Below are positions 23,467 to 32,805 of a DNA stretch of 64,000 nucleotides, one piece after another. Numbering within the stretch: position 1 is the first letter of the stretch; the number at the start of each line of letters is the position of its first letter. Below the pieces are notes generated by a model. The model was given only the letters and a program-made list of their open reading frames with translations. It was not told the origin of the DNA and made no database searches. The DNA lies in contig CAWGYD010000006.1 in the NCBI GenBank assembly GCA_963826785.1, forward strand, positions 64,001 through 128,000, read 5' to 3'. This DNA is from an uncultured delta proteobacterium. GTDB taxonomy: Bacteria > Desulfobacterota > Desulfobacteria > Desulfobacterales > Desulfosalsimonadaceae. Both the position numbers and the translations under genes were made by a program.

Positions 23467-23832
23467 ATGAATGGCAACCAATTGAACGACCTTGACCTGT
23501 CCGTCGACAAACAAAACCTTTACCGGGAAGAATCCATGACCGACCTGAAGGTGGCTTCCATCCGGCAGCTGATCCCCATCAAGACCGACGGATCGGTGGA
23601 TCCGGAGCGAAAACCCGTATTCATCGGGCACACCCAGCTCATGTCACCCGATGGCCCCCTGCCCGTCCAGGCGCACCTGGAAGCGGATTCGTTCGAACAG
23701 GCTTTGGAGAAATTTCCGGCCATCATGAAGCAGGCCATTTCGGAGATGATCGATGAACTCAAGAAATGGCAGCAGGAACAACAGCAGCAGGGAAAAGGCG
23801 ACGATTCCCGCATTATCATTCCCCGCATGTAA
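23467..23832 (+). CDS. Small conserved cytoplasmic protein, copy 1
   Basis: GGAGG RBS; NLYREESxTDLKVASIR...FIGHxQLMSP.GPLP...SRIIxP; paralogue of 25780-26148. Confidence 0.85.
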   Translation: MNGNQLNDLDLSVDKQNLYREESMTDLKVASIRQLIPIKTDGSVDPERKPVFIGHTQLMSPDGPLPVQAHLEADSFEQALEKFPAIMKQAISEMIDELKKWQQEQQQQGKGDDSRIIIPRM

Positions 23833-25682: not shown

Positions 25683-25779
25683 ATTATCTGTTGCAGCTTC
25701 CGCCGATTCGTGAAAGATTTGACAGAATATTTTTCGGAACCTATTTTATTAATAAATCCAATATAAAGGGAGGTCTTTC

Positions 25780-26148
25780 ATGAATGGTGAGCAGCAGTTG
25801 GACAGCATCAGTTTCACGGTGGACGAAAACAATCTGTACCGGGAGGAATCCATCACGGATCTCAAGGTGGCATCCATCCGGAAGCTGGTTCCCATCAAAT
25901 CCGACGGAACGGATGATCCGGGCAGAAAGGCGGTTTTCATCGGCCACTCCCAGCTCATGTCCCCCCAGGGACCGCTGCCCATCCAGGCCCGCCTGAATGC
26001 TGACAACATCTCCGACGCCATGAAGGAATTTCCCGGGGCCATGAAGCAGGCGCTGGCCGGCATGGTGGAAAAATTGAAGCAGTACCAGGATCAGCAGGCC
26101 CGCCAGAAACAGCAGGGCGAATCCCGTATCATCGTCCCCAAAATGTAA
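25780..26148 (+). CDS. Small conserved cytoplasmic protein, copy 2
   Basis: GGGAGG RBS; paralogue of 23467-23832. Confidence 0.85.
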   Translation: MNGEQQLDSISFTVDENNLYREESITDLKVASIRKLVPIKSDGTDDPGRKAVFIGHSQLMSPQGPLPIQARLNADNISDAMKEFPGAMKQALAGMVEKLKQYQDQQARQKQQGESRIIVPKM

Positions 26149-26193
26149 TCTCCTCAATTCTCATTACACTCCGGAAGAAGAAAGGCGCTTTTG

Positions 26194-27465
26194 ATGCCTT
26201 CGCGACTTTGTCTGCACAATACCCTGACCGGACGCAAGGAAATCTTCAAACCGGCGGATAATCACCATGTAAAGATCTTCACCTGCGGCCCTTCCATTTA
26301 TGACTGGCCGCATATCGGCAACTACCGCACCTTCCTGTACGAGGATATTCTCCAGCGGTATCTGGAATATAGCGGGTATGAAGTCGAACGGATGATCAAC
26401 TTCACCGACGTGGAAGACAAAGCCATCGAGCGGGCCCGGAAGAAAGGCATTTCCCTGGATCAGCTCACCCAGCCGGTGGCCGATGCATTCCTGCAGTCCT
26501 GCCGGATTCTCAAGATCAAGCTGCCCGCAGACATCCCCCGGTCGTCCACCACGGTGGAGGCGGCGGCGGAGCTGACCCGGGCGCTGATGGAAAAAGGATA
26601 TGCCTACCGGCACGGACAGGATGTTTATTATGATCCTTTGAAATTCAAGGGTTTCGGGAAGCTTTACGGCCTGGACATGAGCAAGTGGCCCAAAAAGAAA
26701 GTCCGTTTCGGCAGGGACACGTACCCGGGTCAGCGGTGGAACCTGGGAGACTTCATCCTGTGGAAAGGGGGGCGCTGCCGGCCGGAAGACGACGCCTGCT
26801 GGGACACACCCCTCGGCCAGGGGCGTCCCTCCTGGAATATCCAGGACCCGGCCATGATCTCAAGCCGCCTGGGCTTTCAGGTGGACATCAGCTGCGGCGG
26901 CGTGGACAACCTATACCGGCATCATGACTACATCATCGCCATCATGGAGGGTGTGTCCGGTAAACCGTACGCGCAGTACTGGCTTCACGGGGAGCATGTT
27001 CTCTCCGACGGGAAAAAAATGTCCAAGAGCCGGGGCAATATCCTCTATATCAAAGATCTGCTCACCTCCGGATACCTTCCTCACCATCTCCGCTTTTTCC
27101 TGATCTACGGCCATTACCGGGAGAAAATGAATGTCTGTGACGATCAGCTGCAGCTTGCCCGGGGGAAAATCGACACCTTTGCGGACCTCGCCTGTTACCT
27201 GAAAGATAACATATCGACGTATGGCGGCTCCGAAAAGGCCGCATCCCATCGGGTCGACCGCATCAGAACCGATTTTGAAAAGCACATGAACGATGATCTT
27301 AATGTCCGGGCCGCCTTTGACGCCACCTACGAAAATTTGAAAAAACTGGTCCAATTCAAAACCGAGGGCAAACTGAAGCAAAACGACTGCGAAAGGGCGC
27401 TTGCGGAAATAAAACGGATCGATCAGGTGTGGCAGGTTCTCAGCTGCAGGATTTTTAAGGACTGA
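26194..27465 (+). CDS. Cysteinyl-tRNA synthetase-like class I ligase paralogue (atypical active site, no anticodon domain)
   Basis: LHNTLTGRKE, FTCGPS, HIGN, NFTDVEDK, DFILWK, GRPSWNIQD, KMSKSRGN, DALR-like MNDDLN. The protein ends about 55 aa after that motif. Confidence 0.85.
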   Translation: MPSRLCLHNTLTGRKEIFKPADNHHVKIFTCGPSIYDWPHIGNYRTFLYEDILQRYLEYSGYEVERMINFTDVEDKAIERARKKGISLDQLTQPVADAFLQSCRILKIKLPADIPRSSTTVEAAAELTRALMEKGYAYRHGQDVYYDPLKFKGFGKLYGLDMSKWPKKKVRFGRDTYPGQRWNLGDFILWKGGRCRPEDDACWDTPLGQGRPSWNIQDPAMISSRLGFQVDISCGGVDNLYRHHDYIIAIMEGVSGKPYAQYWLHGEHVLSDGKKMSKSRGNILYIKDLLTSGYLPHHLRFFLIYGHYREKMNVCDDQLQLARGKIDTFADLACYLKDNISTYGGSEKAASHRVDRIRTDFEKHMNDDLNVRAAFDATYENLKKLVQFKTEGKLKQNDCERALAEIKRIDQVWQVLSCRIFKD

Positions 27466-30360: not shown

Positions 30361-32805
30361 TTAATTGACAACGGCCTTTCTGCTGCCCTTCCGGACCAGG
30401 CGGATGGTCTCCTTGATCTCCTGGGGGGAAACGCCTTTTCTCAATGTTTCCATCTTTTCCATCACCCTGGCAAACACGATGCCCTCGGCCGCGCTGATCC
30501 ATTCCAGCTGGAGCCGCTCGGTGCGGATGCCCAGCTTCTCCATTTTTTTATGAATCTTCTCGATCCGCTTTTCGGTCCAGTGGTTGGCATTGATGTAGTG
30601 GCAGTCGCCGATGTGGCAGCCGCTCACCAGGATCACCGGGGCGCCCTTGGCAAATCCGTGCCAGATGTACTTCTCGTCCACCCGGCCGGAGCACATGGTG
30701 CGGATGATCCGGGCGTTGGCCGGGTACTGGAGCCGGGAAACCCCGGCGTAATCGGCCCCCGCATAGGAGCACCAGTTGCAGGCGAAGGTCAGCACCTTGT
30801 CTTCGGGGTTTTCGGCCAGCATGGCATCGATCTGGTCCGTGATCTGCTCGTCGGTGTAGTGGTTCATGATGATCGCGCCAAACGCGCATTCGGCCGCGCA
30901 GGTGCCGCACCCGGCGCAGGCCGCCGAATTGATCACCGCGGGCGTCTTCTTTTTCACATCCACGGTGATGGCATTGTAGGGGCACACATCCGCGCACTTG
31001 CCGCACGACTTGCACTGTTCCGCCACCACCTCGGAGGTGATGGCCTCGGTGGTGATCTTCCCCTGGTGCATCAGCCGGATGGCCCGGGCCGCGGCGGCCG
31101 AGGCCTGGGTGACCGACTCCTTTATGTCCTTGGGGCCTTCCGCGCATCCCGCATAGAAGACCCCCCGGGTGGCCGCGTCCACGGGCTGCAGTTTGGGATG
31201 GGCTTCCAGGAAAAAACCGTCCGGGGTCAGCTGCAGCCCCAGGATTTCCTGGAGCCGGCGGGTGCCCGAAGACGGCTGCATGCCCAGGGCCAGCACCAGC
31301 ATGTCCAGATCATGAAACTCGATTTTGCCCGTGGCCGTGTTTTCCACCGCCACCCGCAAACTGCGGTCGGCGGTCTCCTCCACGGTTCCGGGAAGGCCCC
31401 GCACGTACTGCACGCCCTGGCGGCGGCTCCGGGTGTAGAGGTCTTCAAAGCCTTTGCCGAAAGCGCGGATATCGATATAAAACACCTTAATGTCGATCCC
31501 GGGATAATGTTCCTTGAGCACAAGCGTACTCTTGACGGTGTTCATGCAGCAGGTATTGGAGCAGTACTCCTTGCCCTTGCGGGCGGAGCGGGATCCGACG
31601 CACTGGATGAACCCCACCGATTTGGGATGCCTTCGATCCGTGGGGCGGATGAGTTCCCCCTGGGTGGGCCCGCCGGCATTGACCAGCCGCTCGAATTCCA
31701 GGCTGGTCAGCACGTTTTCAAAACGGGTATAGCCGTATTCGTCAAGTTCCGTGGGATCGTAGGGGGAAAGCCCCGTGGCCACGATGATGGACCCCACGCT
31801 CTCCACGATCTCCTCGTCGGACATGCTGAAGTTGATGCAATTTTTGTCGCAGGCCTCCATGCACTTGGCGCACACGGTGGGGTTGTGCCCCAGACATTCG
31901 TTGACATTGACCACATAGGCGGAGGGGACCGCCTGGGGAAAGGGCGAATAAATCGCCCGCCGGGAGGACATCCCCATGTTGAACTCGTCGGGGCGCACCA
32001 CCGGGCAGACCTTGGCGCATTCGCCGCAGGCGGTGCATTCCTTTTCCTCCACGTACCGGGCTTTCTTGAGGATCTTTACATCAAAATTGCCCACATATCC
32101 CCTGATATCCACCACCTCACTCATGGTGAGGAGTTTGATCCGTGGATGCCGACCGGCATCCGTCATTTTCGGACCCAGGATTCAGATGGAGCAGTCCATG
32201 GTGGGAAAGGTCTTGTCCAATTGGGCCATGACCCCGCCGATGGAGGGTTTTTTTTCCACCAGCACCACTTCGTAGCCGTTGTCTGCCAGGTCGAGTGCCG
32301 CCTGGATGCCGGCAACCCCGCCCCCGATGACCAGGGTGCGCTTGGTGAGCGGCAGGGTTTCCTCGAACAGCGGGAACAGGCGATGGACCCGGGAAACAGA
32401 CATGCGGACCAGGTCTTCGGCTTTTTTCGTGGCCGCATCCGGCTCCTTCAGGTGCACCCAGCTGCACTGCTCCCGCAGATTGGCCATCTCCAGCAGGTAG
32501 GGGTTTAAGCCCGCGGACAGCATCATCTGCCGGAAAGTGGGCTCATGCAGGCGCGGCGAACAGGAGGCCACCACGATCCGGTCGAGGCCGTTTTCGAAGA
32601 TGTCGTTCTTGATCTCCTGCTGCCCCGGCTCGGAACAGGCATAGGCGATGTCCTTGGACACCACCACCCCGTCCAGGGCCGCGGCGGTTTCGGCCACTTT
32701 TTTGCAGTCCACCGTCTGGGCGATATTCAACCCGCAGTGGCAGACATACACGCCGATCCGGGCCGGCGGGGCGCTCTGCGTGTTGGGTAGAATCGATTCC
32801 ATCAT
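30361..32805 (-). CDS. hdrA: Heterodisulfide reductase subunit A-MvhD fusion, selenoprotein (UGA at 32182-32184 read as Sec), ~814 aa
   Basis: ORFs 32182-32805 and 30361-32166 are in frame: ...KTFPTMDCSI-TGA-ILGPKMTDAGRHP. GVYVCHCG, CSPRLHE, GGGVAG, QCVGSR..CSNTCC, two ferredoxin inserts, C-terminal MvhD FACNWCSY...MCSGRV...GCHIGDCHY. Confidence 0.93.
32144..32184 (-). promoter_or_regulatory. Bacterial SECIS element of hdrA
   Basis: mRNA reads UGA, 20 nt, then GGAUGCC-GGUC-GGCAUCC: a perfect 7-bp stem with a G-initiated tetraloop. Confidence 0.85.

Follow-up and report, generated by a model that had tools for sequence, protein, structure and literature searches.

A conserved CysRS-like paralogue with a rebuilt amino-acid pocket and no anticodon domain in an uncultured member of the Desulfosalsimonadaceae

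The stretch of DNA analysed here, referred to as the window, comprises 64,000 nucleotides from an uncultured delta proteobacterium of the Desulfosalsimonadaceae (assembly GCA_963826785.1, contig CAWGYD010000006.1, positions 64,001 to 128,000 of the forward strand). It carries a gene for a paralogue of cysteinyl-tRNA synthetase (CysRS). The open reading frame (ORF) lies on the + strand, starts at 26191 (TTG) or 26194 (ATG) and runs through 27465, with the stop codon TGA at 27463-27465. The identical 423-amino-acid (aa) form beginning at the ATG is present in the protein collection as P0001, and all residue numbers of the paralogue count from this form. The following features were mapped:

26194..27465, + strand: gene for the 423-aa CysRS-like paralogue (ORF, P0001, Pfam, TIGR00435, AlphaFold2 model)
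26284..26322, + strand: CGPS...HIGN, with the first metal ligand, Cys31, and the ATP motif of HIGH type as HxGN (translation, alignment)
26389..26421, + strand: RMINFTDVEDK strand and loop with Arg66, Thr71 and Asp72 (alignment)
26674..26763, + strand: rebuilt connective peptide (CP) loop, DMSKWPKKKVRFGRDTYPGQRWNLGDFILW (alignment)
26833..26847, + strand: WNIQD replacing WHIEC, residues 214-218, inside GRPSWNIQDPAM (alignment)
26890..26934, + strand: SCGGVDNLYRHHDYI replacing HGGGxDLxFPHHENE (alignment)
27016..27030, + strand: KMSKS loop, residues 275-279 (translation)
27139..27462, + strand: DALR-like helical bundle at the C-terminus, the last element of the protein (model, alignment)

Pfam PF01406 (tRNA-synt_1e) matches the paralogue with 257.7 bits and E = 2e-76, so that its assignment to the CysRS type is far above chance. 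The score with the cysS model TIGR00435 is 306 bits (305.3 in the genome search) and thus lies below the curated cut-off of 340. This match spans positions 2-396 of the 466-position model, so that the alpha/beta anticodon domain at the C-terminus is absent, in agreement with an earlier reading of the window from its sequence (the original prediction), according to which the protein ends after DALR-like helices. The alignment with the canonical 476-aa CysRS of the same genome ends near canonical residue 411. An AlphaFold2 model computed from a 36-sequence alignment (predicted local distance difference test score, pLDDT, 89.1; predicted template-modelling score, pTM, 0.91) has the helices of the C-terminal bundle at residues 316-337, 348-365, 371-390 and 396-413. 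When this model was compared with solved structures using Foldseek, CysRS came first (template-modelling (TM) score 0.88 for 8qhp and 0.80 for 1li5), followed by MshC (0.77-0.79) and MetRS (0.68 or less). CGPS occupies residues 31-34, HIGN residues 40-43 and DISCGGVDNLYRHHDYI residues 231-247. These strings had been quoted in the original prediction together with GRPSWNIQDPAM and KMSKS, and all five were located in the translated ORF.

The genome to which the window belongs (4.43 Mb, 11 contigs, 88% complete) contains three CysRS-type genes. A canonical cysS, the presence of which elsewhere in the genome had been proposed as a check, was indeed found on contig C10. Its 476-aa product scores 586.4 bits with TIGR00435, carries GRPGWHIECSAM and HGGGKDLIFPHHENE and has the C-terminal anticodon domain. 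Canonical cysS was present alongside the paralogue in all six genomes examined, the five besides the window's own scoring 474-555 bits. The paralogue is probably not the cell's working CysRS. The third gene (L002:592-2856, contig C5) encodes a 754-aa fusion of a PALP (cysteine-synthase-like) domain with a CysRS-like domain. The CysRS part reads HLGE for HIGH, has no KMSKS and retains the C-terminal anticodon domain; PF00291 was found on relatives of this fusion. Open frames of about 757-857 aa with PALP-CysRS-type matches are common in the order and bear the database name 'cysteine--tRNA ligase', and in the fusions of two Syntrophobacter-type genomes the zinc Cys residues are lost as well. No fused version of the paralogue was detected: 45 longer proteins are all at most 36% identical to it and represent PALP- or glycosyltransferase-fused CysRS of other types.

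To map the amino-acid pocket, we used the genome's own canonical CysRS as reference, the numbering of which equals that of E. coli at these sites. The zinc ligands of CysRS, which we take to be Cys28, Cys209, His234 and Glu238 (E. coli numbering), correspond in the paralogue to Cys31, Asp218, His243 and Ile247. The first Cys is therefore kept, and the exchanges of Cys209 for Asp and of Glu238 for Ile, which had been predicted, were confirmed. An alignment of 118 family proteins with six canonical CysRS revealed a set of switches that are invariant or nearly so, namely Tyr64 to Arg66, His206 to Asn215, Glu208 to Gln217, Cys209 to Asp218, Pro233 to Arg242, Glu236 to Asp245, Asn237 to Tyr246, Phe259 to His268 and Thr276 to Tyr285. 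Asp218, His243, His244, Asp245 and Tyr246 were each found in 118/118 family sequences, and Asn215, Gln217 and Arg242 in 117/118. Arg66 is likewise present in 118/118, at a position where canonical CysRS has Tyr or His, and the canonical Arg two residues further on is Ile, Leu or Met in the family. Position 247, the equivalent of Glu238, is variable (Asn in 76 sequences, Thr in 35, Ile in 3, Leu in 2 and Ser in 1). Thr71 and Asp72 are common to the family and all six canonical CysRS compared.

The residues C31, G32, P33, S34, H40, G42 and N43 are invariant among the 118 family sequences, as are K275, M276 and K278 of the KMSKS loop. Across the genome loci, this loop reads PMSKS or TMSKS in Spirochaetota and KMSKR, KMSKT or KMAKT in one Bathyarchaeia group, and its second Lys is retained in every variant listed. 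HIGN and KMSKS had been described as intact. Both are present and conserved, but HIGN is a variant of HIGH and not the intact motif. The Cys in SCGG had been regarded as new, and this view had to be given up: the canonical CysRS of a Bathyarchaeote (G002) contains HIGN and HCGGVDN, that of a spirochaete (G005) HIGN and HCGGVDH, and both keep GWH[IV]ECSAM. Since these canonical enzymes have both features, HxGN and the Cys of xCGGxDN are not new in the paralogue, and the family probably descends from the HxGN/HCGG subtype of CysRS. With the ATP motifs and Thr71/Asp72 conserved, the natural expectation would be an enzyme that adenylates an alpha-amino acid.

In the CP loop, residues W165, P166, F172, D175, Y177, G179, W182, N183, G185 and D186 are invariant (118/118), and several of them fall in columns that canonical CysRS leaves as gaps. 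Judged from the sequences, the rebuilt pocket and acceptor loop probably serve a purpose different from ordinary protein synthesis. In CysRS, the acceptor arm of the tRNA is contacted by the CP and KMSKS/stem-contact domains (1u0b complex). The median net charge of the CP domain is +5 in the family versus -3 to +3 in the six canonical CysRS, and the KMSKS/stem-contact domain likewise has a median of +5 versus -3 to +3. For the whole proteins, the median isoelectric point (pI) is 9.17 in the family versus 5.5-6.3 in canonical CysRS, and the median net charge is +10 versus -5 to -16. The excess of charge resides in the two domains named and would suggest an anionic acceptor, in the simplest case the end of an RNA.

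A word-indexed search returned at least 120 protein clusters of the family (53-100% identity, 362-456 aa), labelled at their source as 'class I tRNA ligase family protein' or 'cysteinyl-tRNA synthetase'. The named sources are Desulfobacterales, Syntrophobacteraceae-type bacteria, Nitrospiraceae, Bathyarchaeota, Thermoplasmata and the cultured Desulforhabdus amnigena (P0112). In contigs representing one genome per species, 244 stretches encode a relative, and the best 80 of these 244 were examined. ORF calling recovered the gene in 75 of the 80 loci, which together with the window make up the 76 loci referred to below. According to the record titles, the carriers among the species genomes are Thermodesulfobacteriota, Spirochaetota and Bathyarchaeia, and where the group is named they are mostly sulfate reducers, syntrophs and Bathyarchaeia. 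WNIQD or WNVQD was found in 76/76 loci, which settles in the affirmative the question, raised in the original prediction, of whether this motif is conserved. RHHDY and HxGN (as HIGN, HVGN or HLGN) are also present in 76/76 loci, and the full CP motif WP....[RH]F..D[TN]Y.G.[RQH]WN.GD in 66/76. The 36-sequence alignment contains 80 invariant columns. Within the window's order, occurrence is patchy: 9 of 151 sampled genomes have a family member (at least 48% identity), and the remaining listed matches in this sample are at most 38% identical. The matches in the ESM Atlas were limited to clusters of similar short CysRS-like proteins that had been named automatically. Literature searches for CysRS/MshC paralogues, archaeal aminoacyl-tRNA synthetase-like proteins and Bathyarchaeota CysRS, with subscription journals outside their coverage, found no paper on the family.

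A tree was calculated from 39 family, six canonical CysRS and three PALP-fusion sequences. The family forms one side of a branch with full support in the Shimodaira-Hasegawa-like approximate likelihood-ratio test (SH-aLRT 100), and its stem measures 1.98 changes per site versus a median end branch of 0.32. The HxGN-type CysRS of the Bathyarchaeia genome G002 appears as sister of the family, with weak support (78). Within the clade, Bathyarchaeia, Spirochaetota, Syntrophobacteraceae and Desulfobacterales are each resolved as a group of their own, a pattern that fits inter-domain transfer followed by vertical descent. The 80 invariant columns, the conserved catalytic motifs and the SH-aLRT 100 clade indicate a family of predicted adenylate-forming enzymes that is real and under selection. 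It constitutes a conserved, cross-domain lineage of predicted ligases derived from CysRS, which is separate from CysRS, CysRS* and MshC and apparently uncharacterised.

The original prediction had proposed an adenylating enzyme with a non-canonical acceptor. This part is reasonable for a protein that retains the ATP motifs but has no anticodon domain; the CysRS*-type acceptor system considered with it is not borne out, as described below. Our preferred explanation, to which we give somewhat less than an even chance, is that the paralogue is an active accessory two-step ligase, belonging to an undescribed clade off the HxGN-type CysRS and most likely using RNA as acceptor. In a first step, suggested by the conserved motifs, the Rossmann core with HxGN, GG-D, MSK of the KMSKS loop and Thr71/Asp72 would make an aminoacyl-adenylate from an alpha-amino acid and ATP. 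The remodelled metal pocket would read the side chain, with Cys31, Asp218 and His243 as candidate ligands. Three protein ligands are proposed because the fourth ligand of CysRS, Glu238, is lost, as in MshC. The new invariant residues Asn215, Gln217, Arg242, Asp245 and Tyr246 would line this pocket, the substrate of which could either carry a thiol, as do cysteine and its close analogues, or be a new amino acid. In the presumed second step, the acceptor would be picked by the basic, aromatic-rich CP loop and the basic stem-contact region, and not by an anticodon. The likeliest acceptor would be the acceptor end of a tRNA or a nucleoside on a tRNA, as for CysRS* or Glu-Q-RS. We favour RNA for two reasons: the family is strongly basic in just those regions with which CysRS contacts the acceptor arm, and the gene travels alone between phyla and would therefore need a universal partner. 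An RNA acceptor would also suit two related Desulfobacterales loci in which a PIN_5 ribonuclease and a Pab1020-type RNA ligase are located downstream on the same strand (L013:9329-11067 and L016:5103-6792), an arrangement that may represent an RNA-centred operon.

The gene surroundings were analyzed by BLAST clustering of 1,024 ORFs from the 80 loci and the window, and by Pfam scans of 272 flanking ORFs (75 loci). No conserved partner gene was found among the 76 loci or in the Pfam scans. Neighbourhood blocks are lineage-specific, the largest partner cluster comprising 20 loci that all belong to one group, so that a gene neighbourhood conserved across the family, which the original prediction had suggested looking for, did not emerge among the loci examined. 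In Syntrophobacteraceae, the gene order is a hydrolase-OsmC fusion, HPF-CSD, CNNM/CorC and then the family gene. In Spirochaetota, the family gene stands between a DHO-dehydrogenase-like gene and a GFO/IDH/MocA oxidoreductase gene, and in Bathyarchaeum between a methylene-H4MPT dehydrogenase-like gene and DinB. In some Desulfobacterales, it is followed by a gene for a cytidylate-kinase-like protein. The seven neighbours in the window (AmpG, DUF6178, a 121/122-aa paralogue pair, an MFS transporter, a 630-aa membrane protein and an EEP-family protein) include none that recurs in any of the 80 loci. The pair consists of two paralogous ORFs of 121 and 122 aa at 23467-23832 (+) and 25780-26148 (+), which are 58% identical and flank the MFS transporter gene after DUF6178. 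They gave no Pfam or NCBIfam match, and neither lies near any of the 80 related loci. The second of them stops 45 bases ahead of the ATG of the CysRS paralogue, and a promoter-like site was noted at 25719-25747. The scattered neighbours found elsewhere, among them MsrB in L048 and Fpg in L033, are leads only. At a single locus, a gene for a FemAB-family protein (L006:6141-7262, - strand) lies two genes upstream of the paralogue's closest relative among the tree rows (63% identity); the FemAB family uses aminoacyl-tRNA as donor.

Several observations weigh against an RNA acceptor. tRNA genes are present in just 4 of the 80 loci, with no single tRNA common to the four (Met twice, Pro and Gln), and Rfam gave no matches in 8 loci. 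The net charge of individual family members spreads from -7 to +28. Moreover, AhpC/TSA is encoded directly upstream of the family gene in two Bathyarchaeia loci (L082:7440-7997 and L085:7508-7966), thioredoxin downstream of it in a third (L068:2033-2437), NifU together with a class-V aminotransferase (cysteine desulfurase family) in a spirochaete (L053:6244-7577), and the OsmC fusion near it in Syntrophobacteraceae. Such redox and thiol neighbours would suit a role in thiol metabolism. When the pocket segment was compared with solved structures, the best match was MshC, a tRNA-independent ligase, in a virtual tie with CysRS (41.0 vs 40.9 bits). MshC also has Tyr at the position of Asn237, has lost Glu238 and displays the same domain layout.

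These points are taken up by an MshC-like explanation, which we consider possible but doubtful. According to it, cysteine or another thiol amino acid would be bound on a Cys-Asp-His zinc site and joined to the amine or hydroxyl of a small molecule (sugar, cofactor or lipid head group), giving a protective thiol or related metabolite in anaerobes. MshC is the cysteine:GlcN-inositol ligase of mycothiol synthesis and works with mshA, mshB and mshD in Actinomycetota. Because it uses cysteine as substrate and yet lacks the Glu238 equivalent, the loss of this residue is compatible with cysteine activation. An Asp-Cys-His zinc site that binds a thiolate is known in protein farnesyltransferase; by analogy, the Cys-Asp-His site of the paralogue could still hold zinc and a thiolate, and a thiol substrate would be possible, as would a new one. 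Apart from HH[DE]Y, the lost Glu238, the domain layout without an anticodon domain and the top PDB match of the pocket segment, the invariant CP-loop aromatics W165, F172, Y177 and W182 would suit a sugar or ring acceptor, and MsrB (L048) can be added to the redox neighbours listed above. However, the paralogue scores only 183.2 bits with the MshC model TIGR03447, the cut-off of which is 485.1. The second zinc Cys is replaced by Asp, and His206 and Glu208 are changed although MshC keeps both. Among the 272 flanking ORFs, no glycosyltransferase, deacetylase or acetyltransferase partner was found, save the FemAB/GNAT-type protein in L006, and a gene that moves on its own is hard to reconcile with a multi-gene pathway. 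So high a positive charge would be unexplained unless the acceptor were anionic, and the redox neighbours are few and given as raw counts. The comparison with MshC relies on hidden Markov model, PDB sequence and fold matches.

It appears improbable that the acceptor is of another kind (protein, carrier protein or membrane lipid) or that the enzyme serves as a back-up CysRS, using another metal to charge tRNA-Cys when zinc is scarce. Asp in place of Cys makes a harder ligand set, and a basic surface could bind membranes. The group-named carriers are mostly sulfate reducers, syntrophs and Bathyarchaeia, that is, anaerobes of sulfidic habitats. Recognition of tRNA-Cys is, however, unlikely without an anticodon domain and with a rebuilt CP loop, and no carrier-protein gene is adjacent. 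The Pfam scans of the 272 flanking ORFs and the 7 window neighbours gave matches to neither Zur nor ZnuA nor COG0523. Zur-regulated CysRS paralogues do exist in beta- and gamma-proteobacteria but are reported to retain their zinc ligands (PMC2770081).

It is very improbable that the gene is a decaying copy or encodes a non-catalytic pseudo-enzyme. The score below the curated cysS cut-off and the loss of two of the four canonical zinc ligands would agree with decay, but the frame is intact, the 80 invariant columns, including the ATP motifs, extend across two domains of life, the branches within the clade are short after a long stem, and the model is confident. The contrast is provided by the PALP (CysK)-CysRS fusion of the same genome, which has no KMSKS and only part of HIGH. 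The original prediction had allowed for the gene being the only cysS or a decaying copy. Neither is the case: a canonical cysS coexists, and the paralogue is not decaying, since the same substitutions are conserved across a large family.

The original prediction had also brought up CysRS*, which charges a selenocysteine-like tRNA-Cys(UCA) (selC*) used with SelB*. In the loci published by Mukai et al. 2017 (PMC5389517), cysS* adjoins and overlaps selB* downstream, behind the selC* tRNA(UCA), and CysRS* is rare, has no anticodon domain and has a changed CP1 motif. The window contains no tRNA and no Rfam match. Its genome has one tRNA-Cys(GCA) and one tRNA-Sec, and a second Sec-like tRNA is absent from the assembly (88% complete). 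A 96-nucleotide (nt) 'tRNA-Trp(cca)' reported by ARAGORN at C1:229358-229453, with a long extra arm, was not among the tRNA-Sec model matches and is likely a false call in view of its weak stems. No selB was found beside the gene among the 76 relatives, and no Sec-like tRNA in the 80 loci. A selB search of 401 genomes from the order gave matches in 380, many of them with two, and a real CysRS* was sought in genomes with two copies. The candidate genome G097, with three CysRS-type matches, turned out to have an ordinary ispF-cysS locus. In genome G131, selB* was found at C107:92670-94559, directly followed by a CysRS-type match to positions 2-371 of the cysS model. L095:1541-4828 (G131, C107) represents the complete selC*-selB*-cysS* locus:

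L095, 1541-1632: tRNA(UCA) (RF01852, 57 bits)
L095, 1653-3578: selB*, encoding the 641-aa SelB*
L095, 3575-4828: cysS*, encoding the 417-aa CysRS*, with a 4-nt overlap with selB*

This CysRS* keeps HLGH, GRPGWHIECSAM (GWHIECSAM), HGGGADLIFPHHENE (FPHHENE) and KMSKS. Its TIGR00435 score of 407 bits is above the cut-off, and it groups with four bacterial canonical CysRS (support 97). A clade uniting the family with CysRS* was rejected in the approximately unbiased (AU) test (difference in log-likelihood 76, p-AU 0.00027). The CP region of the G131 protein is unlike the 'PTVS' motif quoted for Desulfococcus biacutus. Although the paralogue lacks an anticodon domain, occurs in the same order as the published CysRS* and has a gene for a selenocysteine-containing HdrA 3 kb off, its identity with CysRS* is refuted by the synteny, pocket and tree tests and, as the family also occurs where selD failed its cut-off, hardly deserves credence.

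The HdrA gene is separate from the paralogue and lies on the opposite strand (window 30361-32805, -). Because of an in-frame TGA at 32182-32184, where the product reads FPTMDCSIU, HdrA is probably a selenoprotein. No selB or selD above the cut-off was found in the window's assembly, 88% complete, and both genes are probably located in the missing 12% of this genome. In the carrier genomes, selD was above the cut-off in 1/5, the window's own being among the five, and in 0/2 Bathyarchaeia chromosomes; sepS was above the cut-off in 0/5. A link to selenocysteine, described as unproven in the original prediction, or to SepRS is thus not supported.

In a broader view, the CysRS superfamily might comprise, besides CysRS, MshC and CysRS*, a fourth lineage with a function of its own, represented by this family: a horizontally mobile single-gene ligase of anaerobic bacteria and archaea with an Asp-Cys-His metal site. 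Its substrate would be a non-standard amino acid, or else cysteine activated in some novel manner, and the acceptor, selected with no anticodon reading, would be the end of an RNA, a modified nucleoside, or a cofactor or thiol yet to be discovered. We regard this proposal as speculative and rather unlikely as it stands. If it were true, it would mean a new RNA modification, a non-canonical aminoacylation or a redox metabolite in sediment anaerobes. Synthetase paralogues that no longer read anticodons have repeatedly proved to carry out unexpected chemistry, as in the case of MshC (mycothiol), Glu-Q-RS (tRNA modification) and CysRS* (UGA recoding). The present family equals these in its degree of conservation and extends over two domains of life. 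Its automatic annotation as cysS could mislead metabolic reconstructions. The identity of the amino acid and the acceptor would reveal a new RNA route or a missing step of thiol metabolism in sulfate reducers, syntrophs and Bathyarchaeia, and with Desulforhabdus amnigena (P0112) a cultured carrier exists.

Compared with known systems, the paralogue has in common with canonical CysRS of the HxGN/HCGG subtype (8qhp, 1li5/1u0b) the fold, the Rossmann core, KMSKS, the stem-contact and helical-bundle domains, and the equivalents of Cys28, Trp205 and His234. Canonical CysRS differs in having an anticodon domain, four zinc ligands and a pI of 5.5-6.3, whereas the paralogue has a pI of 9.2 and a rebuilt CP loop. 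Glu-Q-RS, which derives from GluRS and has no anticodon domain, glutamylates the queuosine of tRNA-Asp. Like the CysRS paralogue, it has a class I core without anticodon reading and is encoded by a stand-alone accessory gene; it acts on tRNA. It stems, however, from a different parent synthetase (GluRS), and for our paralogue a tRNA target is hypothetical. A review lists Glu-Q-RS (YadB) among the aminoacyl-tRNA synthetase paralogues and gives CysRS* and MshC as paralogues of CysRS (PMC9437257).

The Zur-regulated paralogues are also extra CysRS-type genes beside a housekeeping one, possibly tied to metal supply. They are reported to keep the zinc ligands (Haas et al. 2009, PMC2770081; PMC10957091) and to sit in zinc-homeostasis clusters (PMC2770081), whereas the ligands of the present family are changed and no zinc-gene neighbours were seen among the flanking ORFs. 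CysRS* resembles the paralogue in the absence of an anticodon domain, the altered CP region and its presence in the same bacterial order. Unlike the broad, stand-alone family with its rebuilt pocket, it has a canonical pocket, is linked to selB* and is nested within bacterial CysRS. MshC (TIGR03447; PDB 3c8z, 8hfm) is likewise a CysRS paralogue of about 410 aa without an anticodon domain, and its fold matches the model with a TM score of 0.77-0.79. It differs in keeping WHVEC with the second zinc Cys, where the paralogue has Asp. The carriers of the paralogue are not named as Actinomycetota, and no mycothiol-type partners were seen among the flanking ORFs. In the pocket, MshC reads GWHVECSAI and FPHHEYS and the paralogue SWNIQDPAM and YRHHDYI, so that the two proteins have only HH-x-Y and the missing Glu238 in common.

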